A stretch of 64,000 nucleotides of DNA from an uncultured Methanolinea sp. (GTDB lineage: Archaea > Halobacteriota > Methanomicrobia > Methanomicrobiales > Methanospirillaceae), in the NCBI GenBank assembly GCA_964452625.1, contig CAYVMJ010000001.1, positions 489,914 to 553,913 on the forward strand, written 5' to 3'. Position 1 is the stretch's first letter, and every line of letters begins with the position of its first letter. The position numbers were made by a program, and so were the translations under genes. Positions 1 through 46,493 of the stretch are shown piece by piece. The notes below the pieces were generated by a model. It was given only the letters and a program-made list of their open reading frames with translations, searched no databases and was not told the DNA's origin.

Positions 1-35
1 TGCAGGGGGTGAATACTCGTGTTAAAAATGTTATT

Positions 36-989
36 TTATGAAGGATTTTGCAAAGAAGATACTACTTTTTCTGCATATCCCCTCACTTCAGGGTTTTCAT
101 CATCTTTCAATTGAATAAAAATGGGTAAAAATCCATTATCTATTATTAAATGCGATTCTCCCCTTTTTGTAAATTCACGGAACATCGCACAAACAATTGC
201 CTTAGTATCCCATCCGCTGGTTGTTAAATACCTTTTAAAAAGATCTATTTTTCCCGCCTCGACAATTTGTGCAAAGGTAATTTTTCCTTCATTTACGCCG
301 CGTAATAGAACTGCGATTGCGTTATAGGGATCCTTAAGGAGGGCAAGGTATTTTAAATAGGATTTAATCGTGGTATTATCCAAAAATTCATCTAAAGGCC
401 GATGTTCTAAGAATCGCTGATAAATTTTAAATAATTCATAAGCTATTCTCGGCTCTTCTTCTCCTGTCATGGAATTAACAACATCCTTTGAAAAACCATT
501 TTCCCCAATATAGATAAGCAAAGAAATTGATTCAGTTTTTATTTTAGGGTCTTGGCTCCCAAGTAAGGGAATAAGGGCTGGAATAATGCCTGAATCTACT
601 AGTATTTTGGGATTTCGCTGTCGGCCGATAATATTCAGTATTGATAAGCATTTAACTTGGACGTTATTATCGGAATCGGACAAGCATCTAATTAAAAGGG
701 AAGGGACTTCGTTTTTTACGGCAAAGTCAATAATTTCATCTGAAAAATGACTTTCGAGGTATTCCAGATTCTCTAAATGAACATTACCTTGTTCATCAAT
801 TAAATTTCGATAATTCGCGACCAATTCGTTTTCTTTCTTGTAAATTTCACGCCACTTAATTAATCTTTTCCCGACATTTATCATTTTACGGTCGAAAATG
901 TCTAGAATTCTTGGTAAATATCTTCCAATGATTATTCCTAAAATAAGGAAGAATGCATACTTTATTACCTCAATTGTAAAATCAGACAT
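36..989 (-). CDS. Membrane-anchored HEAT/armadillo-type repeat protein (hypothetical)
   Basis: 317-aa ORF in an AT-rich block. It has an N-terminal hydrophobic helix (FFLILGIIIG) followed by repeated helical units typical of HEAT repeats (e.g. PEVRGYAEKVV). Confidence 0.45.
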   Translation of the reverse strand: MSDFTIEVIKYAFFLILGIIIGRYLPRILDIFDRKMINVGKRLIKWREIYKKENELVANYRNLIDEQGNVHLENLEYLESHFSDEIIDFAVKNEVPSLLIRCLSDSDNNVQVKCLSILNIIGRQRNPKILVDSGIIPALIPLLGSQDPKIKTESISLLIYIGENGFSKDVVNSMTGEEEPRIAYELFKIYQRFLEHRPLDEFLDNTTIKSYLKYLALLKDPYNAIAVLLRGVNEGKITFAQIVEAGKIDLFKRYLTTSGWDTKAIVCAMFREFTKRGESHLIIDNGFLPIFIQLKDDENPEVRGYAEKVVSSLQNPS

Positions 990-1034
990 TCAATAATCCT
1001 AATTCGCTAATTACAAAGAATAAGGTTTTGGGGG

Positions 1035-4019
1035 TTAAGATTGGAACCTATAACACCCCTCACACAACCTCACCCCGCTCTCTTTATCTTTCCAAACCGC
1101 CGGTTCAATATCGCAGACAGTGCAACGCCCGATTGAGACATTCACCCGTTCCATCTTCGATGGATCAATCACCCCGGGCAAAGGAGGGGCCGAGGACCGT
1201 TCCCGGTCCACCGCTGCTTTATGGCACGGCTTGCAGATCCTCCGGGCTCCCTGCTGGTCCTTCGGCCTGCTCTTCCGCTCCGGAGTGAACTTTTCAATGT
1301 ACCGGCTGTCCTTTCGTCCGCACACCCAGCAGGGGGTCCGCTCGGGGATATCCAGGACCTTGTAGTCCCGGGGATTGATTCGCCTTCTCGCTCCTTCCGC
1401 TCCCTTCAACGAGGACCGGGATCGATTCCCGCTTATATCCTCGCCCTGGTTGTCATTCAGGCAACACTCCGGGGAGATTTTTTCCTGCCCCTCTGCACTG
1501 CTCACCTTACTCACAGGTGCAGGAGTGCATGCACCCGGCGCTCCGCCCCGGTGCGTGTCTTCCACTCTACTGTAGGACACACATGTACTCACACACGTAC
1601 TGTGTGTACTAGAGAGAGATTCACCAGTCGCCGTCGCCGGCGCATGTTCTTCTCCTGCAACATCCGTGGAAGGACCGGGGAAGGGTGCCGGAGGATTGCA
1701 GGGGTCACCGCCCTCGTCCGGACCCACCTCTTCGATCCACACCCCGCCGCCGGCGATCCAGTGCTTGTAAAGCTCCTGGTCGAAGGTGTAGGCGTTGGTC
1801 CTCCGCCGCATCGAGAGCCCGCTCTCCTCCTCGGACACCACCGTCCGGTCGGTGAACGCGATCGCCGGGCACTTCTCGAGGAGCCCCGAGTAGGACATCC
1901 CCCGGCTCGTATACCCGTGGATCAGCTTGTGGATGCTCCCGTTGCTCCAGCCCGTCGCCCGCTGGAGCATGGGAATGGTGAACTCCGGCCACCGCTCCCT
2001 GCTGATCAGGTCCAGCAGGTCCGCCTCCCGCCGGGTGAGCTTGCTGGTCTGGCCGCCGGCCGACCCGTGGAGCAGGCCGTAGAGCCGGGCCGCTTCCCGG
2101 AAGTCATCCCGGGTGGCAACGATGCAGGCGACCCCGCTCACGTCCCGGGTCTCCCGCTGCATGAACCGGAAGAGCGTGTTCGCCTTGATCAGGTCCAGAA
2201 GCATCTCCGGGTTCCGCCGGTTGTCCCGGGCCTGGAACCGGATCCGGGAGGAGAACGGGACCACCACGTAGAACCGCTGCCGGCCGAGCACCTCCCACAT
2301 CGCCTGGCAGACCAGTACCTCGGGCCGCTCCTCATCCCCGTAGGCCGGGACGTCCTGGTCCCGGAGGAGGACCCGTGCCAGCACGAGGTCGTCCTGCTCC
2401 GGGGAGTCGTCGATCCAGCAGGTGAGCATCCGGTTGAAGACCTGGTCGTCGCCCGAGCCCTCGACCTTCGCCACCCACCACACGCACCGCTCCGGGATGG
2501 TGCAGACCTGCCCCTTCCGGTCCCGGCTCACGGTGCGGTAGATAAACGGCTCGCGAAACGAGGTGGTAACCCCCTTCAGGATCTCCTGCATCTCGTCCGA
2601 GAGCGTGGTATCGTCCAGGATGATCACCGTGCCCGGCTGCAGCGAGTCGTGGTAGAATAGGGCCTTGTTGCTCATCGCGCCTTTGAGCCGGAACCGTTCC
2701 GGGACCTGGCGGAGGATGGTGGAGAAGACGTGGCTCTTTCCCTTCCCGCTCTCCCCGGTGACGGAGACGTGCAGTCCGTTGGTATTGATCACCGATCGGG
2801 AGGCGAGGGAGAGGAGGAGGCACTCGGCCACGGTCCGGTCCCCGACGTGGTCCAGACCCCCGGTGTCCAGCATGGTCCGGAGCGGGTCGCCGGTGCGGAG
2901 GACCTCGGCGGCCTCCTCCAGCCCGGGATACGTCTCCAGGGCGGCGGGGTCGGAACCGGAGAAACAACCCTGCGCAGCGGGCGGACCGACAGGAGCCGGC
3001 CCGGTCCGGGCGGACGACGATGACCGCTCGTACTGCCGGCGCAGGTCGGGCCAGCGCTGGGCCCCGCCCCCGCAGGTCTGGTGGTGGCACCCGGCGAAGA
3101 TTGCCCCGTTCGGGAACTGGATAGCGAAGGCGCCGTCCTTGTGCGATCCCGAGAAGGGGCACTCCTCCAGGACGAAGAGGATCCCGCCCTGCCAGGGCCG
3201 CTCGGTCCGGACCGCCAGGCCGTGCGACGAGAGCCAGGCCCGGAGGTCGATCCCGGTCCCGGTCCGGGGTGCAGATGCACCCCCCGGGGAAGGTCCTGCC
3301 GGGAGAGCCCGGGCGAGCTGTTCCAGCAGGTCCCGGGAAACGGCCTCGACGGGGTCCGGCACGGCGAGGACACGGGACCTGCGGTGCGGCCGTTCGAGGG
3401 TGTGGTCGCCCTTCCGGGACGTGGTCCCGTAGAGCTTCCAGATCCGGGCCGGGTTGAAGTTCGCCGCGTCGACGGTGACCGTTCCATCGGAAAAGAGGGC
3501 GTCCAGGGTGACGAGGCACTTCTTCACCAGCTCGCCGGCGGCCTCGTCGTTGGGGAGGTCCACACGGTAGAGCAGGTGGGCCCCGTTGCCGGAGTCGGCC
3601 CGGACCGGTTCCGGAAACCCTCTCTCCGCGAGCCAGCCGGCCACCTGCCCGGCCCGGTCAAGTGCGGCCCGGTGCTCCTCCCCGGTGGATGAGACCCCGC
3701 TCGGCCGGACCGGGTCCAGGTCTACCGGGAGCCACCGGCGGCAGAGGATGTCCGCGTCGGCGGTGGTGGCGTCTTTCCGGGTGAGCCGGAGCTTCACCCG
3801 GTTAGCCCGCCGGGCGAGGAGGGCCGGGTTGACCGGGTTGAGAGTGATGTAGATCCCCTGCACCTCGGGGAGAGAGTCCAGGGACGATGCGTGGGATGCC
3901 AGGGCCTCGGGCCGGTCGAAGTACCCGGAGTGGACCGCGTTGTCCGCCAGCGCCCGGAGCTCGGCGATGCCCTGGTCGGGGAAGAGCAGGGAGAGGGCCT
4001 GGGCGATCTCCTCACTCAT
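1035..4019 (-). CDS. Replication protein: N-terminal primase-polymerase (PrimPol, pRN1-type) domain plus P-loop (SF3-like) helicase domain and C-terminal Zn-ribbons
   Basis: PrimPol motifs are visible: DxD (VDLDP), sGxGxHxxY (SGNGAHLLY) and a third D (TVDAANF). Walker A is GESGKGKS and Walker B is VIILDD. C-terminal CxxC pairs are present. Length is 994 aa. The start overlaps the upstream ORF by 8 nt. Confidence 0.7.
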   Translation of the reverse strand: MSEEIAQALSLLFPDQGIAELRALADNAVHSGYFDRPEALASHASSLDSLPEVQGIYITLNPVNPALLARRANRVKLRLTRKDATTADADILCRRWLPVDLDPVRPSGVSSTGEEHRAALDRAGQVAGWLAERGFPEPVRADSGNGAHLLYRVDLPNDEAAGELVKKCLVTLDALFSDGTVTVDAANFNPARIWKLYGTTSRKGDHTLERPHRRSRVLAVPDPVEAVSRDLLEQLARALPAGPSPGGASAPRTGTGIDLRAWLSSHGLAVRTERPWQGGILFVLEECPFSGSHKDGAFAIQFPNGAIFAGCHHQTCGGGAQRWPDLRRQYERSSSSARTGPAPVGPPAAQGCFSGSDPAALETYPGLEEAAEVLRTGDPLRTMLDTGGLDHVGDRTVAECLLLSLASRSVINTNGLHVSVTGESGKGKSHVFSTILRQVPERFRLKGAMSNKALFYHDSLQPGTVIILDDTTLSDEMQEILKGVTTSFREPFIYRTVSRDRKGQVCTIPERCVWWVAKVEGSGDDQVFNRMLTCWIDDSPEQDDLVLARVLLRDQDVPAYGDEERPEVLVCQAMWEVLGRQRFYVVVPFSSRIRFQARDNRRNPEMLLDLIKANTLFRFMQRETRDVSGVACIVATRDDFREAARLYGLLHGSAGGQTSKLTRREADLLDLISRERWPEFTIPMLQRATGWSNGSIHKLIHGYTSRGMSYSGLLEKCPAIAFTDRTVVSEEESGLSMRRRTNAYTFDQELYKHWIAGGGVWIEEVGPDEGGDPCNPPAPFPGPSTDVAGEEHAPATATGESLSSTHSTCVSTCVSYSRVEDTHRGGAPGACTPAPVSKVSSAEGQEKISPECCLNDNQGEDISGNRSRSSLKGAEGARRRINPRDYKVLDIPERTPCWVCGRKDSRYIEKFTPERKSRPKDQQGARRICKPCHKAAVDRERSSAPPLPGVIDPSKMERVNVSIGRCTVCDIEPAVWKDKESGVRLCEGCYRFQS

Positions 4020-4359
4020 TGTCTCCTCCCGTCTCGCCCGGGACGAGGGGGAAGAGCGGGGCGGACACTACGTCTCCCCGGGCAACCCGCCGGAAACTCA
4101 CCACCGGGATGATGAAGCGGCCCACCACGGAATAGAAGATGACTGCCTTTCCGGACCGGTTCAGGGCGCAGTGCCCCTCGATGGTGACCCGTGGCTGCTG
4201 CTCACCGGGGCCTGGTTTTTGGACCTTGATGAGCGGAGCGGACCGCCCGGTGAAGAGCAGGTTCCGCACGTCATCCGGGGGGAGCTGGTAGTGCTCGCCC
4301 TCCACCTCGATGTGGAGGATCTCCTGCTCGCCGAGGGAGAGAAGTCCCGGATCATTCAT
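4012..4359 (-). CDS. Hypothetical protein, translationally coupled to the replication protein
   Basis: 115-aa ORF whose stop overlaps the PrimPol-helicase start. A G-rich RBS-like stretch sits upstream. Confidence 0.4.
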   Translation of the reverse strand: MNDPGLLSLGEQEILHIEVEGEHYQLPPDDVRNLLFTGRSAPLIKVQKPGPGEQQPRVTIEGHCALNRSGKAVIFYSVVGRFIIPVVSFRRVARGDVVSAPLFPLVPGETGGDNE

Positions 4360-4617
4360 GGGACTCGTCCCCCCTGGCGGTGAAGAGCAGGAAGATCAGG
4401 TACTGGTGTCTCCGGGTCCGGCGGATACTCACTTCCAGGAGGTCCATTCCCTCCTGCCGGAGCTCGATCGAGATGGCCTGGGGGATGAGGAAGAGGGGGA
4501 CCGGCCCGGTCTCTCTCCTCACCGTGGGCGTTGAGCTTATGGTGTTGTTCGACGAAGATCTGGTGGCAGACTCTTCCTCCCGGTCAGTGAAGCCTGGTTC
4601 GTGGGGGGAGCTGCCGT

Positions 4618-4752
4618 CTATCCGCTCGCGGTGCATTTCTTCACCTCGGACGGTATGAGTCGTGCTTTTCCTTCGGCGATCCATTTCTCCCAGACCAGCT
4701 TTGCGATCGGGTCCGGGATGTGGTCCAGGGTTTCCTGGGATATTTCTTTCAT
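4618..4752 (-). CDS. Possible small protein (44 aa), below the ORF-track cutoff
   Basis: ATG preceded by AGGAGA 7 nt upstream. Hand translation gives MKEISQETLDHIPDPIAKLVWEKWIAEGKARLIPSEVKKCTASG. It competes with a dubious 150-aa ORF (4352..4804) in another frame. Confidence 0.25.
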   Translation of the reverse strand: MKEISQETLDHIPDPIAKLVWEKWIAEGKARLIPSEVKKCTASG

Positions 4753-4976
4753 AGATTTTCTCCTGTGCAGGAAGGCCTCCGGAATTGAAATGCTGGGAGG
4801 CCATGCTGCACGGAGACTAGGTCAGGATGGAGGAGGAGAAAAGGATGGAGTCCGGGGGGTGAAAGGGGGACATGTAATAAAATTTATACAGATCGTGATT
4901 TAGCTATTAATGAGGAAATATTACGCCCCGGAAAGGAAGAGACCTTGAACAGTTAATTGCACTTCTCGAGATTAAA

Positions 4977-5813
4977 TTGAGTGGGGAAGATGTACAGATA
5001 AAATCTCCTGATTTTATTGCAGATTCAATAACCGGTGAGAAAAGGGAAGTAGATATCTCATTAAGAGGCAAAATCGGATCGCATCCAATTTTAATTATCA
5101 TTGAAGTTCGGGATCGAGATAAAGTTCAGGATGTTACTTGGATTGAGCAATTAGCAACAAAAAGAGATAATATTGGAGCTGATAAAGCAATTGCTGTTTC
5201 AACTCATGGTTTTTCTAGAGGTGCCATAAGAAAAGCCAGAGCTTACGGCATTGAATTAAGAACAATCGAAGAAATCACTCAAGAAAAAGTAAAGAGATGG
5301 ATGTTTATAGATACATTAAAAGACGTTATTGAAAATTTTAACATAAATAAAGCAATCATTCATCCAATAAACCGAGAACATGCCGAAAAACTCACAGAAT
5401 TTTTAGAATCTAGGATGTTTGAAGTAAATCTGAATGAAAAAATTTTGTTTCCTCCTGGTCAAGAAAATGCCTTATCATTAAATGAATTATTTCGTTTGTT
5501 TTCTGAAATCAAGACTGTTTATCGAGATTTGACCCCTGGAAAAACAATTTCAATTCAAAGTACTATACACAGTGAAGACAATGTCTATTATAAGATAATA
5601 ACGAAAGAAGGGGAAATTTTAGTAGATACCATTATAATAGATGCTGATTTATGGGTTGAACTCAAGAATAAAAAAATTCAATCAATTAAAGAGTATAAAA
5701 CTTCAGAAAAAACATTTGCACGAGTCATCATATTGGATAATACAGCTACTTCAGGAGAGCCCCACCAAATTCATTTAGTTAGAATTTTTCGCGAAACAGG
5801 CGATGATATCTAA
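4977..5813 (+). CDS. PD-(D/E)xK restriction-endonuclease-like (Mrr-cat/NERD-like) domain protein with an unknown C-terminal domain
   Basis: The N-terminal about 100 aa carry a D...(I/V)IIEVRD...K core and an AVSTHGFSRGAIRKARAYGIEL segment typical of the Mrr catalytic domain. The gene is AT-rich and convergent with the neighbouring 190-aa ORF. Confidence 0.55.
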   Translation: MSGEDVQIKSPDFIADSITGEKREVDISLRGKIGSHPILIIIEVRDRDKVQDVTWIEQLATKRDNIGADKAIAVSTHGFSRGAIRKARAYGIELRTIEEITQEKVKRWMFIDTLKDVIENFNINKAIIHPINREHAEKLTEFLESRMFEVNLNEKILFPPGQENALSLNELFRLFSEIKTVYRDLTPGKTISIQSTIHSEDNVYYKIITKEGEILVDTIIIDADLWVELKNKKIQSIKEYKTSEKTFARVIILDNTATSGEPHQIHLVRIFRETGDDI

Positions 5814-5835
5814 ATTTTGAGAAGAATATTTTTAA

Positions 5836-6408
5836 CTAGTCCTCAATTTTTCCTTCATATAGACTGTATTCTCGTTTAAAATATGTTGAAAGATTCATTA
5901 AGAGGTTTAGATATTCATTCGATAAATGATGTCTACAAATTGTATCATTTTGATTAATGATCCAACAAACTCCATTTTCCGTAACTATACCCAATGTAAA
6001 TATCGTTTCCCAATCAGTATCCTTATAGCGTCTGGCTGGTTGATATTTTGCCAGAGGGATCCTAATCCTTTCAAATGAGATTTTAGTATCAAATATTTCT
6101 TTTTTAACATTATCGTCTTTAATAATTCCCTGTTTCTTGATTTGTTCATCTATAGAGCGGACAATTTCATAAACCCCTAATACCCAGAGATAAGATAGTG
6201 TATGAAATTCTGACAATTCATAAATAAATTCGCGATCTGTAGAAAAATTTTCCATCATTTCTAGAATAGATAATATTCTATAACGTAATTGATGCTCTAT
6301 TAAACCCAATCCCAAAGATGTATTTTGCATCATGGGATTAAATTCAACTAATGTATGAGAGTGATCAATCCATAATTGAACAAATTCTTCAATTTCATCA
6401 CATTTCAT
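5836..6408 (-). CDS. Hypothetical protein (190 aa), AT-rich cargo gene
   Basis: Clean ORF lying between the nuclease and the STAND gene. No motif was recognised. Confidence 0.45.
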   Translation of the reverse strand: MKCDEIEEFVQLWIDHSHTLVEFNPMMQNTSLGLGLIEHQLRYRILSILEMMENFSTDREFIYELSEFHTLSYLWVLGVYEIVRSIDEQIKKQGIIKDDNVKKEIFDTKISFERIRIPLAKYQPARRYKDTDWETIFTLGIVTENGVCWIINQNDTICRHHLSNEYLNLLMNLSTYFKREYSLYEGKIED

Positions 6409-6437
6409 ATGTTCAACTCATATTTTCTAATTAAATT

Positions 6438-9400
6438 TTATAACGTTGTGCGGATCTTCTCTGTCAATTCCATTGCTAGAGAAATCTGACAATCTGTAAG
6501 TCCCTTTAATAACCGTTTAAACGTGCTAAAAATTTCAAAATTATTTGTAATTGATTGTCGATCATTTTCCCAACACAAATTTAATAGTTCTGCAAGTTTT
6601 GAATTTTGTTCGCTATCCTTCCAAAATTGTTCTAATTGAACCGAATATCCGTATTGTTCTATCCAGTTTAAGGCGGAAACACGAATTCCAGAACATGCGG
6701 GGTATCTTAAAAAGGAAATAAAATTCTTCTGACAATGGAAGTGTGGGAGGTTAACTCTCGCCCATTTCTCAAAAAAATCTTTCATATCTGTAACAATTTC
6801 TTTAAATTCTATTTTCCATCGTGTAGAAACCCCCCGTTCAATTCCAATTAGTTCGCACCATCTCTCTTCTAGCGAGTGATTGTTTGATGGGTAATAATTC
6901 CATAACGGTGTTTTCAATGTATATTCAATCATTTTTTGCCATTCGTGAACAAATGATTTTGGGTTATCCATACAGTTATACATCTGAATAAACCAGAACG
7001 AAAAAAAAGTTTCTATCCAGTCGTTTTTTGATATCTCTAAATCAAGCAATGATTGCCAAATGTCTTCCGGATGTTCATAATCTCGCATTTCTGTAATAAA
7101 AGTCGCAGCTAATTGGAAGTACCATCTATCAAAGTCGTCCGGAAGATGGGTATCATTTTTGGGTCGTGAAGTATCATTGATCGAATAAATTACATATGCA
7201 TTAAGGTTTTTGACCAAGTTAATCCAACATTCACGTTCCTTTTCATCAAGAGCGGTGTTTAATGATGATAACCATTGAAACGAAGATTGTAGTGATAAGC
7301 GATTGTGAAATTCCGGTGCATTCCATTTCCGTCCACCGAAGTTTCCAGGGGGAGTGAATTCTCCAATTCTCCCAATTATCTCTATAATAGAAGGGGTTTT
7401 TGGAGAAAATTTTCCATGAATAAAATTGTGTAATTCTTGATTTAACCAAATTTCAAAATCTAAATTCGTTTTTCGAATTTTTGGATCACGGATACATAAC
7501 TGGCAAAACGTCCTAGATAATGAATTTATGACATTTAAGTGAATTAACTCGTAAAAATCATCTTTCAATAAGCCTCGAATGCTAAAACAACTATTAATAA
7601 GAATTTCAATCGTTTTGTAATGATAAGAAGTAGCGAGGTGGAAAATCATTTCGCGATTTCTTGTAGATTTTACATCATCAATCCAAATGTAGGGTGCAGC
7701 CCATGCACAGAATGAATCCCATTGCATTTCATTGGCGGTTTGCGGAACATCGAAAGGCCCTGGGGTAGGGGGATTGGCGATCAAATCGAATATATGATCT
7801 ATGCACCATTGTTTTTTATCAGGATTTTCTTCTAACCACTTTTTTCCTAACACAATTAATACTGCAATTCCTCCAGCGAGGACATCGGCATCTCGGAAAG
7901 GTCTATTAGTGCCAAATTTAGGATTACTCAAAGAAGAAAACGTTTGAATGTAGTCCCAAATCTGTTCTATTTTTATTGAATCCAACATTTCGGCTTTTTT
8001 TAATGCATTTGAACAAAAGAAAAGAAAATTTAAAGCGTAGCCTCCCTCTTGAGATTTATTAAATTCTTCTTCTCCTTTTTGAAGCAATTGTTTAAGTTCT
8101 TCGGGTTCGTTAAAATACCAATAATCGTTCCCATTGATGTTCTTCTTTGTAGTATAGTTTTCAATATTCATTTGTTGAATTAAACGAAATAGGAAAAAAT
8201 AGTCATGAGAATCTTGATTCGTTGAGATTAAACGTTCTTCCCACTTTTGACGATATTTTTCGATTTCTGAACGAATATTGGGATAATTTAGGAATAACCC
8301 AATTGCTAGATTATAAAAATGAATTTTCCTATGCTGTAAGGAATGCCATTCTGAAAATTGCTTTCTTGTTCTATCGCCAATAACTAATAATCCAAATATT
8401 GATAAACTACGTTCGTCGTAAAGCATCTCCCAACGATATATTTCAGGAATACTGAATTGATATTTTAAAGGTCCTTCAAAAAGTGATAGTTTATATTTTC
8501 CTACAGAAGTTAAAACACCTAATAGTGCAACTGAATTGGTTTTCTCATATATTATTTGTAGAAAGGAATCAATTGAGTCTTTTTTATCTATCTTAATATA
8601 TAGGAATCTCTCTAAAGCCATTAACATTGAACTTAAAATCCTTGGACAACAGGACACCACGGAATCTCTGTACCAAAAATATACTTCATGGTCTCCTTTC
8701 AAAATTTTCGGTGAATTTGCCAATAACAATTCAACTTCATTGACTGGATCGAAATCGGAGAATAAGTCAAGATCGGATTTAGAGTATTTTTTATGAATTT
8801 TAATTTTCCTTTCAATATGCCTTTCAGTTGCAAAATTAACAATTCGAATTATAAGATCTATTGCTTCGAGTGGATGATTAAAAAGAAAGTCTAGGAATGG
8901 GCCATTATAAGGTAAGGCTGGAATAACTCCCTGATAATCCTTGAGACCTAGCTCTCTCTCAAAAAAATCATCGTCATAATCAGAATCAACTATTCGAGGT
9001 TCTTCAATAATCAAACCAAATAAAATGTCTTTGGCTAGTTCAGGGTTGCATATGATTATAGGTAATAATTCATCTTCCTGAATACACATCTTTTGAAAAA
9101 GGTCATCCACATGTTTAAATGGTCCATCGGGCCAAGGAGGGAGCACTTTTTTAGAATACTCGCCTTGCTTTGATAGTATCTTTTGGTCTGTAATTTTTTC
9201 AGAAGGATCGATATTTCCCTTTCCTGATAAACTTAAGAGTAATTTTGTAACTCTTTCAGGATCGTCATTAACTGCGGCTATCGCACACGAATAAGCTTTT
9301 TTGGCTAAATCTGGGTTTTTATAATACCTGCGTGAGTTATCTTTCTTGATTTTTTCTGCAATTGTCAAAGAGAGATCTGCAATTTCCTGTCTATAGGTGG

Positions 9401-11672
9401 TGTTTAAAGGTGTATATTTCAACCAACCCTTTCCAATGTCGATAATTGATTCTGGAGCAATTTTTTCAAATTCGTCCTTTCTTTGATTAATAAATTGAAG
9501 AATTGGAATCCAATACTGAAGAATAGGAATTCTATCGATAAGCGCTGCTTCATTTTCACTTATCCCAAGAATTTTACCAATTATTAGAATTCTTCTATTC
9601 GGGATAGTTGCGATAATCAGAAATCGCTTGAGAAAACGTTTTAGTAAATTTCCATCATCTTTTTCAAATTCTGGCCACAATTTTTCTAAAATTGATTGAG
9701 GATTTACTGAAAAAATTATTGATTCTAAAAGTAAATCGTGGATAGTTGTAAACTCATTGTTCTCCTTTTGTATGCTGAAAAAAACCTTTAAAAACTCTGT
9801 AGGATTTTGATTTTGTTCTAAAAGGTAAAGCCCCAATAATCTAATTCCCCTGTGCCAGAGGGGAGAATCACATTTTTTTTTGAAAAAAGTCGAATCCTCT
9901 GGAATATGGCTGATCAGATATTGTTGTCGGGACCAGTCACCAAAAAGGTCGTGAGAGAATTGAATCCGATTTTGATTAATAGTACAAATTCCGCGTTTTT
10001 TAAAGTCATCAAATATCGTTAAATCTGACGGTAAGATTTCAGAAACAGGTGTTGAGATTTGCCAAGTTTCAGCTTGTCTCTTGGCGAGATTCTGAAGAAA
10101 ACTTGATTTTGCAGCTCCCAGAGGTCGACTGGTTACTTCATTTAACCAAAACCATTCGATTAGATCCGATTCTCCAACCCATTTTGATGTGTCGGGAGTT
10201 TCGTGAGTGGCAAGAAGATCAATAATTTTTGGTCTCGAAAGAATTAATTTTAAATGAGGATGTTGTAATATTTTTTTTAGAGAAGGAAATTCTTTCGTAA
10301 TCTGATTGATTTCTTCATCATTAAACAATTTAAGGTCGAAGGTGTTCCAATTGATGCGATTAAGATCGTGTCTTAAAAACTGAAACAAAACTCTATTATT
10401 CCACTCTTCAGTTTGACATGTAAGTAACATCTTCCAAGGCGTTGATTCTTCTGTAATGTTACACGATTTAATGATTTGAAAAAGTTGATTGAAACCATGT
10501 TCTATTACTATTCTGTCGAGTCCATCGATGATAATCCAACATTCATTGTCGGAAATATTTGTAAATAATTCAGAAATAGAATGAGATAATTGCCAATTTC
10601 TTTCCAGTTGGGGTATACTTTGATCATTAAACCAACCAGCATCAAACCAAATGATTTTTTGATCATTCCTTTTTTGTTCAGCGATTTTTTTAGCAATGAC
10701 ACTTTTTCCACTACCTGAAATGCCAAGAATAAGAGTTACCTTACCGTTTATTGCCAAAACTTCAGATATCTGTTTTTCCCTTTTAAGGGATAATTTTCCA
10801 CCAATTTTGTCTGGGATTGCATCTATAAAATTATTTGATGCAGTTTCTAGATTTCTAAAGTCATGTTCATAAACTGGAAAATTTTTCAAATCATACTTTA
10901 GACGGAATCTATCTAATAAAACCTTTAAATCAATATAACCATTTGTTTCATCCTTTTCGCTTGATAGCTCAATTAAATCTATCCAAAGTTTTTCCGCCTC
11001 AATTTGCGATCCACTAGAAAGAATGTTCTGACAATTTGAGATTGCGCTAATTTCCTTTTCAGAAGGATTAAACTCGAAATCAAATGGGTATACTTTGATA
11101 TGTTTTAACAAATCACCAATTTGATCATCTGTAATACCATATTTTTCAGCAATTTCCGGAGGACATTTAAAGCTAGAAAAATATGATCTGACCCTTTCAG
11201 AGGTATAATTAGGTCTAAAAATTCGGGCATCTAAGTCCTTGGAATCTTGGGAAAAAGCAAGATTTAATAGTTCATTAAGGTCTAGTTCATTTTCATGTCC
11301 ATATGGTGCACATGCTAAACCCAATAAATCCTTATCTTTATCAAATTTTGATCCAGAAAATCCTGTAAAGTCTATCCATGCAGCCTCAACAAAATCTTTT
11401 GGGGCAGCATTTTTCGTGAATTGGAAATTGCTTTTTACTGAAAGAAATAAACGCTTGTTTTCTCCCATAAAATTAAATGTAATGCATAAATCATCTATCT
11501 GGAAATAATCCCCACGCATCTGAAAATCGATTCTCAATATTTCTCCGAGAGATCGATCAAAGATTTTATTCGCGAGAAGATAAGAAAGGAAATACGCCGC
11601 TACCTTATGCTCAAAGTGATATCCACTTCCAGATTTGCTCTTAAGTGGAGCATTGCCTTTAATATTTACCAT
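6438..11672 (-). CDS. Giant STAND/NACHT-like P-loop NTPase (1744 aa). It has an unknown N-terminal domain of about 300 aa and a long C-terminal alpha-helical repeat region. Candidate antiviral STAND (Avs-like) protein.
   Basis: Walker A is LILGISGSGKS at about residue 310. The Walker B / STAND signature CWIIIDGLDR lies about 75 aa downstream. More than 1100 aa of helical repeat-like sequence follow. The gene sits in an AT-rich island next to a nuclease and an integrase. Confidence 0.55.
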   Translation of the reverse strand: MVNIKGNAPLKSKSGSGYHFEHKVAAYFLSYLLANKIFDRSLGEILRIDFQMRGDYFQIDDLCITFNFMGENKRLFLSVKSNFQFTKNAAPKDFVEAAWIDFTGFSGSKFDKDKDLLGLACAPYGHENELDLNELLNLAFSQDSKDLDARIFRPNYTSERVRSYFSSFKCPPEIAEKYGITDDQIGDLLKHIKVYPFDFEFNPSEKEISAISNCQNILSSGSQIEAEKLWIDLIELSSEKDETNGYIDLKVLLDRFRLKYDLKNFPVYEHDFRNLETASNNFIDAIPDKIGGKLSLKREKQISEVLAINGKVTLILGISGSGKSVIAKKIAEQKRNDQKIIWFDAGWFNDQSIPQLERNWQLSHSISELFTNISDNECWIIIDGLDRIVIEHGFNQLFQIIKSCNITEESTPWKMLLTCQTEEWNNRVLFQFLRHDLNRINWNTFDLKLFNDEEINQITKEFPSLKKILQHPHLKLILSRPKIIDLLATHETPDTSKWVGESDLIEWFWLNEVTSRPLGAAKSSFLQNLAKRQAETWQISTPVSEILPSDLTIFDDFKKRGICTINQNRIQFSHDLFGDWSRQQYLISHIPEDSTFFKKKCDSPLWHRGIRLLGLYLLEQNQNPTEFLKVFFSIQKENNEFTTIHDLLLESIIFSVNPQSILEKLWPEFEKDDGNLLKRFLKRFLIIATIPNRRILIIGKILGISENEAALIDRIPILQYWIPILQFINQRKDEFEKIAPESIIDIGKGWLKYTPLNTTYRQEIADLSLTIAEKIKKDNSRRYYKNPDLAKKAYSCAIAAVNDDPERVTKLLLSLSGKGNIDPSEKITDQKILSKQGEYSKKVLPPWPDGPFKHVDDLFQKMCIQEDELLPIIICNPELAKDILFGLIIEEPRIVDSDYDDDFFERELGLKDYQGVIPALPYNGPFLDFLFNHPLEAIDLIIRIVNFATERHIERKIKIHKKYSKSDLDLFSDFDPVNEVELLLANSPKILKGDHEVYFWYRDSVVSCCPRILSSMLMALERFLYIKIDKKDSIDSFLQIIYEKTNSVALLGVLTSVGKYKLSLFEGPLKYQFSIPEIYRWEMLYDERSLSIFGLLVIGDRTRKQFSEWHSLQHRKIHFYNLAIGLFLNYPNIRSEIEKYRQKWEERLISTNQDSHDYFFLFRLIQQMNIENYTTKKNINGNDYWYFNEPEELKQLLQKGEEEFNKSQEGGYALNFLFFCSNALKKAEMLDSIKIEQIWDYIQTFSSLSNPKFGTNRPFRDADVLAGGIAVLIVLGKKWLEENPDKKQWCIDHIFDLIANPPTPGPFDVPQTANEMQWDSFCAWAAPYIWIDDVKSTRNREMIFHLATSYHYKTIEILINSCFSIRGLLKDDFYELIHLNVINSLSRTFCQLCIRDPKIRKTNLDFEIWLNQELHNFIHGKFSPKTPSIIEIIGRIGEFTPPGNFGGRKWNAPEFHNRLSLQSSFQWLSSLNTALDEKERECWINLVKNLNAYVIYSINDTSRPKNDTHLPDDFDRWYFQLAATFITEMRDYEHPEDIWQSLLDLEISKNDWIETFFSFWFIQMYNCMDNPKSFVHEWQKMIEYTLKTPLWNYYPSNNHSLEERWCELIGIERGVSTRWKIEFKEIVTDMKDFFEKWARVNLPHFHCQKNFISFLRYPACSGIRVSALNWIEQYGYSVQLEQFWKDSEQNSKLAELLNLCWENDRQSITNNFEIFSTFKRLLKGLTDCQISLAMELTEKIRTTL

Positions 11673-11819
11673 TGAAACCTACTCTTGTTCCGAAAATAAA
11701 AATAGTATCGCTTTTATTAAAACATAGGAAATGATGAAGGAAACTACAAAATTTAGTCCCTCTATAACCTGTTCTGAACCACTTATCTGATTTTAGGAAA
11801 ATAAAAAAAACGAAGAGTT

Positions 11820-12968
11820 CTATTTAAAAATTGAATTAAGTCCCAATTCCCTCTTCACCGCCTCCACAATTTCCCTGTAATCCGGACTTACCTTCGCTTC
11901 CTTCACTGATTCATCCACATCCATCGCGGCCTTCTTATTCAGGGCCATGGAACATTGGGAGCAATACTGCGAATAATGTGAATTTTTCATCCCGCACCGG
12001 GGACACTTTACCGGTTCGAGTGTCGTCTCTGGCTTCGCTTTCTCATCTGCAAGAATTCCTGCTTTTTCCAGGACCTTTCTCTCCACGTCAGCGCCGGAAA
12101 GATGAACATAGACCTCTGGCATTGCACTGTTCCGTTCCCACCCTGCGACCAGGCGGAGCTCCATCTCGTTCAGGCCCAGGCGCCCGCCAGTACTTCGGGC
12201 CAGGTCGGTGAGCCGGGCATGCCGGATAGCGTGGGGATGGACCGGCTTGGTGATGTGCAAGGCCTCGGCGATGTGGGTGAGCTTGTTCTCCACGGTCCGG
12301 AGGTCCAGGCGTCGCGTGGTCCCTGAGTACCTCCGGCTGGTCACGAAGAGCGGGGCGTTGTTGTCGCTTCGAAGCGGGTGCATGTTTATCCACATCTGGA
12401 GGTCCGGGACCGAACTGACCAGGCGCAGCCTTCGCATCCCGGTCTTTCCGTTCACGATGATCACGGCTCCATACTGGTCGAACTGCACGTGCCCGATGTT
12501 CAGCGAGAGGATTTCAGTTATCCGGGCCCCGGAGTCCCACAGGAGCATTAAGAGGGCCCGGTCGCGCGGCATCTCGCAGGCCTCGACCATGCGGGAGAGG
12601 TCCTCTCTGGTGATGAGCTGGTCTACGGGGAGCTGGCGGCGGGGCCGCTTGATGACGATATTTTCAAAAAGTTTCTTCTCTTTTTTCGGGAGGAGGAAGC
12701 GGTAGAACATCTTCAGCTCCAGGATATTGCCCTGGAGCGTAAACGGGCTCACGGTCTGGCGCCGATGGATTATGTAGTCCTCGATGGCGCTTTGCGTAAC
12801 GGTTTTGGCGTCCTGGAACTTATACCACTTCAGGAACGGGTATACACGCCACACCTTGGTCCTGACCGTATGAAGTCTGAGCTGGCGCAGTTCAAGGTGT
12901 CTGATATACCGTTCGAGATGGATCCTGTTCGCAGGATCGATCGTTGGCAGGGTGTCGAGATCGAACAT
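11820..12968 (-). CDS. Tyrosine recombinase/integrase (phage-integrase family) with a C-terminal Zn-ribbon
   Basis: The catalytic region carries R (LLWDSGARITEI), H-x-x-R (HPHAIRHARLTDL) and a downstream Y (EVYVHLSG). C-terminal CPRCG...CSQC is present. The gene abuts the tRNA fragment. Confidence 0.8.
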   Translation of the reverse strand: MFDLDTLPTIDPANRIHLERYIRHLELRQLRLHTVRTKVWRVYPFLKWYKFQDAKTVTQSAIEDYIIHRRQTVSPFTLQGNILELKMFYRFLLPKKEKKLFENIVIKRPRRQLPVDQLITREDLSRMVEACEMPRDRALLMLLWDSGARITEILSLNIGHVQFDQYGAVIIVNGKTGMRRLRLVSSVPDLQMWINMHPLRSDNNAPLFVTSRRYSGTTRRLDLRTVENKLTHIAEALHITKPVHPHAIRHARLTDLARSTGGRLGLNEMELRLVAGWERNSAMPEVYVHLSGADVERKVLEKAGILADEKAKPETTLEPVKCPRCGMKNSHYSQYCSQCSMALNKKAAMDVDESVKEAKVSPDYREIVEAVKRELGLNSIFK

Positions 12969-13044
12969 TGGTCATACCTCCACAGGACCCAGATTTAATC
13001 CAAACCTGTGTCCGGTGAATGTTAGATCCTTAAGATCCGGTCAC

Positions 13045-13079
13045 GAAGGTGTTCGTGGGTTCGAATCCCATCCCTCGCA
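13045..13079 (+). tRNA. tRNA 3' fragment (T-arm plus 3' acceptor strand). Probably the att site of the integrated element, not a complete tRNA.
   Basis: GTGGG-TTCGAAT-CCCAT forms a T-arm and is followed by CCCTCGC-A. There is no complementary 5' acceptor strand (GCGAGGG) or foldable anticodon arm in the preceding 75 nt. Confidence 0.4.
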
Positions 13080-13203
13080 TTCTGTTTGATGACTTGCTAA
13101 AAATTTCCTAAAAAAATAATTTACATTCCTTTTAGTGTAATACAAAATTTTATCTATTTTTTTGTATTACAATATATTATACTACAATAATTCATTGAGA
13201 ATT

Positions 13204-14466
13204 ATGACTCTTCGAGATGCTATCCTCTTGCAGAAAAGGGAACTTGAACTGCGGATGCAGGAAAAGTATGTCCCACGTGACGCGAATTTGCCAGGGGAAG
13301 AAAACAGACTCATAAAGGTGATTATAGGTCCAAGACGGGCAGGAAAATCATTTTTTGCCGTCCATTCTCTGATGGACAAAGGGCAATTTGGCTACGTGAA
13401 CTTCGACGATGAACAGATGACTGGGAGTCAGGTATTATCAGAAATCGGTCCGGCAATTGAATCAGTATATGGCACCGTATCCACCCTCCTTCTTGATGAG
13501 GTGCAGAATCTCTTTGAATGGGAATTATTTGTGAATCGATTATCCAGGCAGGGGTACAATCTCTACATTACCGGAAGCAACGCCCATTTGCTTAGTAAAG
13601 ATCTTGCAACGCACCTTACCGGTCGACACACATTAACAACCATACTGCCGTTTTCTTATCGAGAGTATATCCGGTTGAAAGGGGAGGAACTGACCGAGAG
13701 CGAATATCGGGAACATCTGGATCTTTATTCAGAAACCGGTGGTTATCCCGAGCCATTGGTCACGAATATCAACCGGAAAGAATATCTTTCAAGGCTTTTT
13801 GATGCAATTATATTCAAGGATATTATCAGGAGATATAACGTGAGAGCACCACAGGGGCTTGGGGATCTTGCGACCTACCTCTGTTCAAACAGTGCGTCAG
13901 AATATTCTGTTCATCGATTGACCAAAGTAACCGGTTGTAAAAGCGATCTGACGGTGAAAAAATATCTTCATTACCTGGAAGAAGCGTTCCTGTTTTTTTC
14001 TATACCACGTTTCTCTTTCAAAGTAAAAGAGCAGTTATCATCACACAAGAAAATCTATTGTATTGACAACGGTTTCATCACTGCAAAGGGATTCAGAGTA
14101 TCTGGTGATAAGGGGAAACTCTACGAGAATCTTGTTGCAATTGCATTAAAGTATCAGGAATTTTTGGATAACCTGAGGGTATTTTACTGGAAAAATTCTC
14201 AAGCGGAAGAAGTCGATTTTGTTATCCAACGTGAGCGGCAGGTGTCGGAACTAATTCAGGTATGTGTCGATGCACAGAGCCCTGCTGCACGGCAGCGAGA
14301 GATGAAAGCCCTGGTGAAGGCAGGACGCGATCTGAAATGTGACAGACTCCTTCTCCTTACCAGAGAAGAGGAAGGGGAAGAGGAAATTGAGTGGTTTGGC
14401 ATGAAAGGAGTTGTGCGAATCATGCCTCTCTGGAAATGGCTCTTGGATACTGCACATGGCACATAA
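13204..14466 (+). CDS. Archaeal AAA+ superfamily ATPase (COG1373 / DUF4143 family)
   Basis: Walker A is GPRRAGKS and Walker B is LLLDEVQ. The family architecture matches. A TATA-like ATATATTA lies about 25 nt upstream of the chosen ATG, which is internal to the 13162 ORF. Confidence 0.75.
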   Translation: MTLRDAILLQKRELELRMQEKYVPRDANLPGEENRLIKVIIGPRRAGKSFFAVHSLMDKGQFGYVNFDDEQMTGSQVLSEIGPAIESVYGTVSTLLLDEVQNLFEWELFVNRLSRQGYNLYITGSNAHLLSKDLATHLTGRHTLTTILPFSYREYIRLKGEELTESEYREHLDLYSETGGYPEPLVTNINRKEYLSRLFDAIIFKDIIRRYNVRAPQGLGDLATYLCSNSASEYSVHRLTKVTGCKSDLTVKKYLHYLEEAFLFFSIPRFSFKVKEQLSSHKKIYCIDNGFITAKGFRVSGDKGKLYENLVAIALKYQEFLDNLRVFYWKNSQAEEVDFVIQRERQVSELIQVCVDAQSPAARQREMKALVKAGRDLKCDRLLLLTREEEGEEEIEWFGMKGVVRIMPLWKWLLDTAHGT

Positions 14467-36347: not shown

Positions 36348-37619
36348 TCACACGGAGGCGGTTGCGTTCGCGGTGATATTTCTCATCACACTGGCGTTGA
36401 GCGGAGCGGTTCCCTGGGTCGGGATGAACCGGACCCCGATATAGGAACAATATCCGTCGACGCAGGCGACCGCCCCCGAACGCTGGTCAAACAGGAGGCG
36501 CTGGCGGTTCCCGGTATCGGTAATCCAGGCGTCAATCGCCTGCCGCTCGATCCCGGGGGTGTACCCCGTCCATTGCCCGTACAGTGTCTCGATAACAGAT
36601 TCGTTATCCGGGAATCCGTAGAACCGCTTGAGTGCCAGTGCCGATGATCCTGTCACGGGATTGGTATAATTGAGATACCTGTATTCCGCCATATCCCTGG
36701 ACCTGGCAAGCGCGAGATCATATGCCCTGCTCTCGAACGCGATGGGCCCCTCCCCCTCCGCGATCCGGAGGCGGTTGAGATAAATAATGGACTGCTGACT
36801 TTCTTCCTGCGTCGTGTTGCTCTTGAGGGTATCCTTTGCCACCATGCGCATCCAGCTCCCTGCCATGGTGACGACCCCCTGGATTGCATGCGAGGCTGCC
36901 ATTTTTGCTCCGGGAACAGTTGTCACGATGAACAGCCCCGCGCAAAAAAGGCTGATAATGAGGAGCAGGATGATGAGGGTGTTCCGGGAGAGGAGCGGTC
37001 TCTTTTTTTGTCGTGCTGCAGGAACGAGGGCCGAGTCATCCTCGAATGAGTATTCTTCGAGCCGCAGTGCATCGACGATGGCATCCATATCCTGGATGCG
37101 CAGCGTGTACCCGGAATCCATGAACCTCATTTTCTGGATGAGGTCATCGGCAGTTGCGATGCGAAACCACTTCACCTTCCGGAAATCGATCTGCCCGTCC
37201 GGATAGGTGCTCCCGCGGCAGAAGTACACCCATGACCCGGTCTTTCTCAGGTTCGACTCTCCTATGTGCGGGAAATGCTCCCTGCACGTGGGGATCAGCC
37301 GATCGATGAAGTCCTGCCTGTGGATCTTTGCCTGGAGGAAGAGGTTCGGAAGCGCGATGGGACCCTCATCGGTGACGGCCTGCCAGTTCCCGTTCTCCGT
37401 CCCCGTGATCTCTCCGCGGAATGCCTTCAGGTCAAGGATGAGAGGGCCGTTCTTTGTCAGGATCACGCAGTCGATCTGCCCGTTTGCGACGAGCACGCCC
37501 GTGAGGAGGTAGACCGGCTCGCGTGGATACTCTTTCCTAAGGATCCTGACGATCTCCCCGAGCTGCCTGAACTCGTGTTCGTACTTTACTTTCTGTCCTC
37601 GAAAAAAACGGATTCCCAT
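36348..37619 (-). CDS. NERD (nuclease-related) domain membrane protein with an extracytoplasmic C-terminal domain
   Basis: The N-terminal about 110 aa match the NERD pattern (VLVANGQIDCVILTKNGPLILDLK...GNW). There is a central TM helix and N-glycosylation-type NxT/S sites in the C-terminal domain. Confidence 0.55.
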   Translation of the reverse strand: MGIRFFRGQKVKYEHEFRQLGEIVRILRKEYPREPVYLLTGVLVANGQIDCVILTKNGPLILDLKAFRGEITGTENGNWQAVTDEGPIALPNLFLQAKIHRQDFIDRLIPTCREHFPHIGESNLRKTGSWVYFCRGSTYPDGQIDFRKVKWFRIATADDLIQKMRFMDSGYTLRIQDMDAIVDALRLEEYSFEDDSALVPAARQKKRPLLSRNTLIILLLIISLFCAGLFIVTTVPGAKMAASHAIQGVVTMAGSWMRMVAKDTLKSNTTQEESQQSIIYLNRLRIAEGEGPIAFESRAYDLALARSRDMAEYRYLNYTNPVTGSSALALKRFYGFPDNESVIETLYGQWTGYTPGIERQAIDAWITDTGNRQRLLFDQRSGAVACVDGYCSYIGVRFIPTQGTAPLNASVMRNITANATASV

Positions 37620-44585: not shown

Positions 44586-46493
44586 ATGAGTGGAATAGGG
44601 GGTATACTGAACCTGGACGGATCAGAGGTTTCTTCCGGGTTGCTCGAACACATTGCCGGTTCAATTAAGAGCCGCGGTCCCGACGGTGTCAGGATATGGA
44701 AAGCGAAGAATATCGGGATGGTGCACAGCCATTTCTGGACGACTCCCGAGGATACGGGAGAAGAACAGCCCATCTCGATGGGTCATTACACCCTTGCGGC
44801 CGACGCAAGAATTGATAACCGGCAGGAACTCCTCCCCCTTTTAAAGGATTATATCAGCCGTGAAGTTCCCAGCGATGCCGAGATCATCCTTGCTGCATAT
44901 CAGAAATGGAATGAAGAGTGTCCGAAATACCTTATCGGAGATTTTGCATTCGCGATATGGGATGCAGAACGGGAATGCCTTTTTCTTGCCCGAGATCCGG
45001 TCGGAATACGACTCCTTCATTATTCGGTGGCAGGGAAGTCATTCGTCTTTGGTTCGGGCGTGGGATCCGTTGTCGCGACCATGAATACAGTCCCTGAGCC
45101 GAACATTCCTATGGTCGCAGACCTTCTGGCAGGCAGATACGATCGCTGGATCGATGAGACTGCCTTCAAGGACGTGCACCGGCTCCCTCCTGCATATTCC
45201 ATGACGGTTCTTGCATCGGGCATTCGCCTGACAAGGTACTGGACATTTGGGGCGCGGAAGGAGTCTCCTCTGGCAACAGAGGAGGAATATGTCGCCCGGT
45301 TCGGGGAATTATTCCGGGAAGCCGTCCGATGCCGGATGAGAGTGAATGACTCTCTTGCAATGACAGTGAGCGGCGGCATCGATTCATCTTCCATCGCCTG
45401 CATGGCACATCATCTCATCTCGTCCGGGGATGTCCGTACAACGGGAAGAATGTACTCTGCGGTATTCGAAGATACCCCCTCTGCCGACGAGAAGGAGTAT
45501 CTTGATGAATTGATTGCTGCCTGCCCTTGCTTCCCGGCCACCGAGATTCCATCCGATACCTTCTGGGGCCTTTGCGAATTTGCAGATGACGCCGGATATC
45601 CCCTTGACGATCCCGAGATCGAGGCGACCCGTGCAGTGATGCTGGCGCAGCTTTTCCACATCGCGCAGGATGGTCATAGGGTCGTTCTAAGCGGCCATGG
45701 TGGTGACCAGGTGATGTATACTGATGCATATGATATTCCTCCCAGCCTGAATGATATTGGCCTCACCAGGCTGCCCTCAGAATTCCGTCATTTCCTGCGG
45801 AATGGAATCCCCGTCACGAAGTTGCTGGAAGAAGCATACGTAATCCCCCTGATCCCGGTTGTCCTCAGGAAACGTCTCTCAAGACTTCTGAGAGATCCCA
45901 CGATAGGAGGCCTGTTGGCTCCCGGGTGTATCAGCATTCCGTCACCGGACCCCGCTGACGTACATCCGGGGTTTCGAACCGCAACCTCCACGAACATTTA
46001 CCTTGCTGTGACCGAAGGACTCAATTCCGTCTACCGGGTCACGCAGGACACGTATGCCTCGTATGCAGGTATCGACTGGCGATTTCCTTTCTATGATCGC
46101 CGCCTGATCGACTTTTTGCTCTCCGTTCCTCCTCTCTATATGTTCCGGGATGGATTCTCACGATGCCTCATCCGCGGGTACATGAAGGGACTTTTACCCG
46201 AAAAGATACGGCACCGGACAACGAAATGTCACCTTGGGGATATCCAGGAGCGTGGAATACAAGAGAAGGAGATATGCAGGGTCCAGGAATTGATCAACGA
46301 TTCCCGGGCTGTGGAGATGGGATTGGTCAACCCGGATGCACTCAAAAAAGCATGGGATTCCTGCTGGAACGGAGAGGAGTACCCTGCCCGTCCCCTCGTC
46401 AGGTTCCTCTGTGCCGAGGCGTGGCTCCGGTATTACGACAGGAAGTACGGGTTACCCCATAGAGCGGAAGCCGGGATGCCCGGAACGGACTGA
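44586..46493 (+). CDS. Lasso-peptide cyclase C (asparagine-synthetase homolog)
   Basis: N-terminal MSGIGGI (AsnB-type) and PP-loop SGGIDSS. Length is 635 aa. Confidence 0.75.
   Translation: MSGIGGILNLDGSEVSSGLLEHIAGSIKSRGPDGVRIWKAKNIGMVHSHFWTTPEDTGEEQPISMGHYTLAADARIDNRQELLPLLKDYISREVPSDAEIILAAYQKWNEECPKYLIGDFAFAIWDAERECLFLARDPVGIRLLHYSVAGKSFVFGSGVGSVVATMNTVPEPNIPMVADLLAGRYDRWIDETAFKDVHRLPPAYSMTVLASGIRLTRYWTFGARKESPLATEEEYVARFGELFREAVRCRMRVNDSLAMTVSGGIDSSSIACMAHHLISSGDVRTTGRMYSAVFEDTPSADEKEYLDELIAACPCFPATEIPSDTFWGLCEFADDAGYPLDDPEIEATRAVMLAQLFHIAQDGHRVVLSGHGGDQVMYTDAYDIPPSLNDIGLTRLPSEFRHFLRNGIPVTKLLEEAYVIPLIPVVLRKRLSRLLRDPTIGGLLAPGCISIPSPDPADVHPGFRTATSTNIYLAVTEGLNSVYRVTQDTYASYAGIDWRFPFYDRRLIDFLLSVPPLYMFRDGFSRCLIRGYMKGLLPEKIRHRTTKCHLGDIQERGIQEKEICRVQELINDSRAVEMGLVNPDALKKAWDSCWNGEEYPARPLVRFLCAEAWLRYYDRKYGLPHRAEAGMPGTD

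Follow-up and report, generated by a model that had tools for sequence, protein, structure and literature searches.

A divergent Avs4-like STAND protein with a predicted Cap4-like nuclease domain on an archaeal integrative element

The locus and its gene

The window discussed here is a stretch of 64,000 nucleotides from an uncultured Methanolinea sp. (assembly GCA_964452625.1, contig CAYVMJ010000001.1, positions 489,914 to 553,913). At 6438..11672 on the minus strand it contains a complete open reading frame (ORF) with an ATG start, encoding an Avs4-like antiviral STAND protein of 1744 amino acids (aa) followed by a stop codon. It is well supported that this is a real and intact Avs-type immune gene, whose product is a divergent relative of the Avs4 family with a Cap4-like nuclease, and that it resides on an archaeal integrative element. 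An earlier reading of the window from its letters only (the sequence-only reading) had delimited the same 1744-aa ORF, which is borne out, and had left its strand unstated. At the local GC content of 0.336, the chance of 1744 stop-free codons is ~1e-58. Full-length homologs measure 1690-1800 aa, and the identical 1744-aa sequence is present on 11 public contigs. The gene lies within a block of GC 0.33 (~4800-11900), while the bulk of the window has a GC content of 0.54-0.57.

The STAND NTPase module

Searches with the single sequence, either of the whole protein or of its N-terminal 300 aa, against Pfam, NCBIfam and the PDB sequences yielded little; the domains were resolved only by profiles and structure prediction. 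The STAND NTPase module (aa 300-590, 9903..10775, minus strand) was delineated by profile alignment to EcAvs4 and by Foldseek, and comprises a nucleotide-binding domain, a helical domain and a winged helix. A profile of 16 sequences covering aa 291-1200 found a sole strong match among the PDB sequences, namely Avs4 (8dgf_A, E 1.8e-29). In this alignment, profile positions 4-476 correspond to Avs4 208-657 and positions 618-893 to Avs4 764-1058. The next matches are generic P-loop proteins at ~1e-5. With the full-length profile, Avs4 was retrieved at an E-value of 2.8e-32 and nothing else at ≤1e-5.

The same relationship can be observed at the level of structure. The AlphaFold2 model of aa 291-1200 (pLDDT 86.5, pTM 0.79) was matched by Foldseek to 8dgf_A with an E-value of 5e-26 over 952 columns. 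SeAvs3 came second and far behind, at 1.5e-8. Further matches were SAMD9, NLRP9, EfAvs5, WRR4A, RPP1 and the NLRP3 NACHT domain; all of these, together with Avs4 and Avs3, had a probability of 1.0. The likeness to Avs proteins proposed from the sequence is thus upheld, since EcAvs4 alone gives a strong match in sequence and leads the structural matches by a wide margin.

The STAND motifs were assigned from the family alignment. Walker A (GISGSGKS, aa 317-324, 10701..10724, minus strand) and Walker B (IIIDGLDR, aa 380-387, 10512..10535, minus strand) do lie about 300 aa from the N-terminus, as the sequence-only reading had it. G317, G320, G322, K323 and D383 are invariant in the 22 full-length relatives. 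Walker B displays the NACHT-like D-G-x-D pattern: DGLD is retained in most relatives, with Arg or Glu/Gln at the last position. The polar sensor-1 position is occupied by TCQ, TCR or SLR, and Pro463 is invariant. The winged helix carries an MHD-like motif (RIQFSHDLFGDW, aa 569-580, 9933..9968, minus strand), in which F572, H574, D575 and W580 are invariant. Its counterpart in EcAvs4 is HDIYEEWA, and in the profile alignment F572-x-H574-D575 falls in line with the HD of EcAvs4. H574 is a candidate for the histidine that touches the nucleotide in STAND proteins. Overall, the assignment as a STAND NTPase with the effector-NTPase-sensor layout, already made from the sequence, holds on profile, model and motif evidence alike.

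The N-terminal effector domain

No domain had been recognized in the N-terminal 300 aa by the sequence-only reading, and database models agree: NCBIfam gave no match for this part, no relevant Pfam family was found at E ≤ 5 in any of 19 N-terminal domains, and no PDB sequence was found at E ≤ 10. The domain could, however, be modeled with AlphaFold2 from a 19-sequence alignment (pLDDT 87, pTM 0.81). In this model, aa 1-290 (10803..11672, minus strand) form a Cap4-like PD-(D/E)xK nuclease followed by a helical bundle. The nuclease core (aa 17-121, 11310..11624, minus strand) has the secondary structure order alpha-beta-beta-beta-alpha-beta. This restriction-endonuclease-like core with its helical extension is nearest in structure to the Cap4-family nucleases. 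In the structure comparison, SeAvs3 scored 13.9, AbCap4 12.2, HamA 12.0, EcCap4 11.8 and LmuA 10.3, compared to 5-7 for ordinary restriction endonucleases.

Conservation among the 19 sequences is concentrated in a putative active site. Four residues (D60, D61, K80 and D115) never vary, and E21 and Q51 are conserved in at least 90%. In the model, E21 is situated on helix 1, D60-D61 precede strand 2 and S78-V79-K80 end strand 3, with D115 completing the site. These conserved residues occupy the region of the PD and (D/E)xK motifs of the fold, which suggests a catalytic role. As judged from the model, the domain is a divergent nuclease of the Cap4 type, the effector class of SeAvs3 and SeAvs7. 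The earlier suggestion that these 300 aa might be a new effector is therefore not sustained, since the predicted fold is already known from SeAvs3, SeAvs7, Cap4, HamA and LmuA.

The sensor region

Some 1150 aa lie C-terminal to the NTPase module, and two parts can be distinguished. The first (aa 591-1190, 8103..9902, minus strand) is mostly alpha-helical and homologous to the sensor of EcAvs4, as determined by profile and Foldseek. Helix accounts for 63% and strand for 8% of aa 591-1200 in the AlphaFold2 model. The PADLOC Avs4 model matches this region in relatives: it was matched by 16 of the 22 (best E-value 1.3e-27, always with partial coverage), among them a protein 68% identical to that of the window (1.2e-23). 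The second part (aa 1191-1744, 6441..8102, minus strand) is conserved within the family, as seen in the family alignment. Where the sequence-only reading had described more than 1100 aa of helical repeats, the length is confirmed, and so is the helical character of the modeled aa 591-1200; the repeats are not, as a BLASTP self-comparison of aa 591-1744 found no internal sequence repeat.

A 1588-aa homolog from a Pantoea plasmid was considered as a bridge from the C-terminal third to EcAvs4. Its alignment to the window protein extends across aa 310-1740 (E 1e-106). The bridge was rejected, as this homolog matches neither a PDB sequence nor the PADLOC Avs4 model.

Family distribution and effector exchange

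A word-indexed protein search returned 26 relatives and gave the impression of a rare family; an exhaustive profile search and a genome scan led to the rejection of this view. With the N-terminal domain as query, the profile search retrieved 3309 proteins at E ≤ 1e-3, each representing one protein cluster at 50% identity, and 856 of them reached ≤1e-30. In every one of the best 150 matches the domain begins no later than residue 76, and the length is 1594-1853 aa in 81 of these proteins. The genome scan, with one genome per species, gave 124 loci. Archaea contribute two of the 80 listed loci (both Methanoregula); the others are bacterial, with hosts from the Acidobacteriota, Planctomycetota, Cyanobacteria, Proteobacteria, Actinomycetota and others. 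The family is thus large and mostly bacterial, and its archaeal copies are restricted to the Methanoregulaceae. These numbers, together with the archaeal Avs families already contained in published surveys (PMC12803255), weaken the earlier remark that an archaeal Avs-like protein would be notable.

The archaeal copies (the window gene and five others) have a GC content of 0.34-0.37, with flanks of 0.42-0.54. Their AT-richness is kept across the Methanoregulaceae despite a divergence to 65-70% aa identity. Most bacterial copies follow the GC content of their host.

Within the family, the effector is exchanged on a retained NTPase and sensor. One relative carries a trypsin-like protease at its N-terminus, with a metallo-beta-lactamase gene located 6 nt upstream. 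The combination of trypsin and upstream metallo-beta-lactamase is an effector module that has been acquired repeatedly by AVAST, Hachiman, Lamassu and DRT systems (PMC12799240). Other swapped N-termini are CHAT and PNP_UDP_1 (one relative each) and EAD10 (two relatives), and short N-terminal domains of unknown type were found in two more, including the Pantoea plasmid homolog.

The members also reside in defense islands and mobile-element contexts. The protease-bearing homolog is surrounded by CBASS, RES and P4 cII genes, another has Dsr2 (2.1e-178) and a patatin CBASS as neighbors, and two further ones adjoin an OLD-family nuclease gene, and AbiJ and an integrase, respectively. Dense toxin-antitoxin clusters with a ScoMcrA-HNH gene were found at two loci. 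The neighbors vary at every locus examined and none is conserved.

Host and integrative element

The sequence-only reading had assumed an archaeal host and an integrative element, and both are corroborated. The window encodes an archaeosortase-associated AglB (40917-43523; TIGR04154, 4.5e-210) and an archaea-specific DUF2115 protein. In addition, the cluster mates of the element's integrase and replication protein carry the name Methanolinea.

The integrase is a XerA/XerC-like tyrosine recombinase with a C-terminal zinc ribbon, encoded at 11820..12968 on the minus strand (Pfam Phage_integrase 1.4e-15; NCBIfam XerA_Arch 1.7e-27). Some 60-110 nt beyond its start codon lies a tRNA gene 3' fragment of ~48 nt (13030..13079, plus strand), which comprises the T arm and acceptor end and resembles an att-type element end. 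The fragment occurs as a single copy in the window, and it was revealed only by comparison with other contigs: positions 1-13080 of the window are 99.98% identical to three contigs (L090-L092), and this identity ends at 13080, exactly at the 3' end of the tRNA fragment. Within the window, direct repeats of the att type were found at chance level only, and no tRNA or Rfam family was detected. A search for an intact tRNA and for the element's other end located neither.

From the integrase onward, the order is: the Avs-like gene, the 190-aa ORF, an Mrr-like gene, two small ORFs, a replication protein, a HEAT-repeat protein, an Orc1/Cdc6-like protein and then host genes. The replication protein (994 aa, 1035..4019, minus strand) is a relative of the plasmid pMTBMA4-type and D5-like primase-helicases (Pfam PF27228, named after a Methanothermobacter plasmid gene). 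The GC content of its gene is 0.70, well above the 0.54 of the host, and its N-terminal 330 aa are 58% identical to D5_N/DUF5906 genes that adjoin the Avs homolog at three Methanoregula loci. Overall, the integrase, the att-like tRNA end, the element's own replication genes and a flank that varies between genomes identify the region as an integrative element, and the view that the Avs-like gene is cargo of such a tRNA-targeting element is supported.

The remaining cargo lies next to the Avs-like gene and in its low-GC block. The 190-aa ORF (5836..6408, minus strand) is located 29 nt downstream on the same strand and matches no family. The Mrr-like gene (4977..5813, plus strand) encodes a 278-aa protein with an Mrr_cat domain (Pfam 9.1e-6) and a C-terminal half without a known match. 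Among the loci examined, these two genes are confined to near-identical contigs. The low-GC HEAT/Armadillo-repeat gene (36-989, minus strand) is situated at the element's left end. The element as a whole (window 1-13080) is a GC mosaic with blocks of ~0.35, 0.70, 0.33 and 0.60.

Some observations concern the integration site. In L090 and L091, a second copy of the tRNA fragment is found 3.5 kb away. The 3.5-kb segment between the two copies (L090 5041-8616) encodes abhydrolase, ferredoxin-like and flavodoxin-like proteins. This arrangement suggests tandem accretion at one tRNA site. Just outside the att site of the window, an ATPase of the AAA_14 + DUF4143 type is encoded at 13162-14466 on the plus strand (PADLOC PDC-S01 1.6e-99, GC ~0.44). 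This gene is not found at the corresponding position in L090-L092 and is probably a separate islet at a shared integration hot spot.

The rest of the window contains a few genes worth recording. Adjoining the AglB gene are an asparagine-synthase-like protein (44586-46493, plus strand), which reaches 398.7 bits on the lasso-peptide cyclase model NF033535 (cut-off 525), and, near it, an MsbA-like ABC exporter (49609-51447, plus strand). The two could be part of a cluster for glycosylation or for peptide modification. A pair of HerA (DUF87) and NurA genes (61325-63956, minus strand) matches anti-phage HerA models weakly, far below the cut-offs, and resembles the usual repair pair of archaea. In the host part, the gene at 36348-37619 (minus strand) encodes a protein of 423 aa that has a NERD nuclease-related domain.

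Proposed mechanism and trigger

Taken together, the gene would encode a single-chain, NLR-like immune receptor of the Avs type, borne as cargo by the integrative element in a Methanolinea-like methanogen and belonging to a large family whose NTPase and initial 600 sensor residues are homologous to those of EcAvs4, a sensor of the portal. We put the probability of this reading at about 80%. That the protein is an Avs-type sensor-nuclease at all is very likely.

Domain identities, the homology with Avs4, the exchange of effectors and the genomic contexts are results of the analysis; what triggers the protein, how it oligomerizes, whether it cuts DNA and whether infection is aborted are inferred from the solved structures of Avs3, Avs4 and Avs7. 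Direct sensing, opening and oligomerization of the NTPase, and assembly of the nuclease have been described for SeAvs3, EcAvs4 and SeAvs7 (PMC12803255). By analogy, the C-terminal helical sensor would keep the NTPase closed in the resting state. The protein would be opened through direct binding of a conserved viral protein, with the portal of a tailed archaeal virus as the first candidate. Subsequently, the ATP-bound NTPase domains would oligomerize, probably to a tetramer. The oligomer would join the N-terminal Cap4-like PD-(D/E)xK domains into an active nuclease, which would then degrade DNA, and the infection would be aborted.

The portal is put forward because ~600 aa of the sensor are homologous to that of the portal-binding EcAvs4, because archaeal tailed viruses encode portals (PMC8651126) and because Methanomicrobiales are infected by tailed viruses (PMC9796341). 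As the specific trigger it is nevertheless held at slightly less than even odds, on account of the unmatched C-terminal third.

Several observations weigh against an Avs4-type receptor with a working nuclease. The identity to EcAvs4 is only ~16% in the Foldseek alignment, and the Pfam STAND models all remain below their gathering cut-offs (nSTAND_NTPase5 25.7 vs 34, NPHP3_N 22.3 vs 24.8, nSTAND3 19 vs 27.2). A PADLOC search, proposed as a check by the sequence-only reading, gave a divided outcome: the Avs4 model was not matched by the window protein at E ≤ 0.01, and the only model that was matched, PDC-M54A (2.4e-17), aligns aa 15-386 with profile positions 18-395 of 1621, a partial coverage limited to the N-terminal domain and the start of the NTPase. 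Among the PDB sequences, nothing was matched by a profile built from 7 sequences over aa 1150-1744. With no Avs4 likeness detected in the last ~550 aa, the target-binding surface may differ from that of Avs4. In the putative active site, most members, including the window protein (Ser78), have Ser two positions before the lysine, and the three most distant have Gln. With the acid of the (D/E)xK position replaced by Ser78, catalysis would need an acid from elsewhere, for which E21 or D60-D61 are candidates; such S-x-K variants with a recruited acid occur in enzymes of the Cfr10I/NgoMIV type. Finally, we know of no Avs protein that has been tested in an archaeon and of no virus of Methanolinea.

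The divergent C-terminal third leads to the closest alternative, in which the Avs-type sensor and the Cap4-like nuclease are kept and this third reads a different conserved protein, from archaeal viruses or competing plasmids. Its lack of likeness (aa 1191-1744) to Avs4 or any other PDB sequence would fit such a trigger, as would the low identity to EcAvs4 and the published count of at least 90 sensor architectures, whose targets are many and diverse (PMC12803255). The ~600 aa shared with the Avs4 sensor point the other way, as do the portals of tailed archaeal viruses (PMC8651126) and the dominance of one sensor type in most defense-associated STAND clades (PMC12803255); a non-portal trigger is possible and should be regarded as tentative. 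In a further-reaching version, the Methanoregulaceae clade would be a branch of the Avs4 lineage that has adapted to archaea, with its C-terminal 550 aa retuned to a non-portal protein specific to archaeal viruses or plasmids, and would serve as a weapon of inter-element exclusion on the AT-rich cargo blocks of integrative plasmids. This is unlikely; if true, it would provide the first tractable archaeal NLR-like pattern-recognition receptor, with a trigger not seen in bacteria.

Two other explanations depart further from a single-chain immune receptor. The protein might be one component of a system of two or more genes, its partner being the 190-aa ORF or the adjacent Mrr-like gene, by analogy to the multi-gene candidate PDC-M54A. 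The 29-nt gap, shared strand and equally low GC of the 190-aa ORF speak for this, and so does the PDC-M54A match itself, although that match covers less than 400 positions of the profile. Both genes were rejected as conserved partners, as neither was matched by tblastn in any of 89 family loci. Together with the neighbors that differ at every locus examined, this indicates a single-gene system, and the characterized Avs3, Avs4 and Avs7 likewise work as single proteins; a multi-gene system is very improbable. A STAND NTPase outside immunity, acting for instance as a regulator or in maintenance of or addiction to the integrative element, would suit the position of the gene between the element's integrase and replication genes, and defense and non-defense STAND clades are known to be intermingled (PMC12803255). 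Such a role does not agree with a nuclease effector domain of a type common to four defense systems, with relatives that exchange this effector for other immune effectors, with homologs that adjoin CBASS, Dsr2 and toxin-antitoxin genes, or with Avs4 as the nearest solved relative, and it is considered extremely unlikely.

With the Avs-type immune receptor as the preferred reading, the locus offers a clean and intact case from archaea, in which the effector can be identified and the sensor has a relative among the solved receptors. These two properties make it possible to test the protein directly against the portal or other proteins of archaeal tailed viruses. STAND/NLR-like pattern-recognition immunity has been demonstrated in bacteria, plants and animals, and in archaea it has been predicted computationally only. 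The same sensor chassis moves between bacteria and archaea, while its effectors are exchanged.

Comparison with known systems

The predicted nuclease fold of the N-terminal domain is shared with Cap4 of CBASS, HamA of Hachiman and LmuA of Lamassu. The activation differs: Cap4 is switched on by a cyclic-nucleotide-binding SAVED domain, HamA by a helicase partner and LmuA by an SMC-like partner, whereas here the nuclease domain is fused to a STAND sensor. PDC-M54A, which is also matched by 12 of the 22 relatives, belongs to PDC-M54, a multi-gene candidate, in contrast to the window family with its lack of a conserved partner gene; no mention of PDC-M54 was found in the literature searched.

Among the Avs proteins, SeAvs3 (PDB 8DGC) and SeAvs7 have the same Cap4-type effector class as predicted here. 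Their sensors differ, however, and are directed at the terminase (Avs3) and the major capsid protein (Avs7). The window protein adds an archaeal member to a known family; neither the kind of system nor the effector nor the principle is new.

The nearest known system is EcAvs4, whose structure was solved bound to the portal of phage PhiV-1 (PDB 8DGF). It likewise consists of an effector, a STAND NTPase and a large helical sensor encoded by a single gene. It is similar in size (1587 vs 1744 aa), and its homology to the window protein covers the NTPase and the initial 600 aa of the sensor. The effector of EcAvs4 is reportedly an Mrr-like nuclease, whereas that of the window protein is Cap4-like in its predicted fold and its host is an archaeon.

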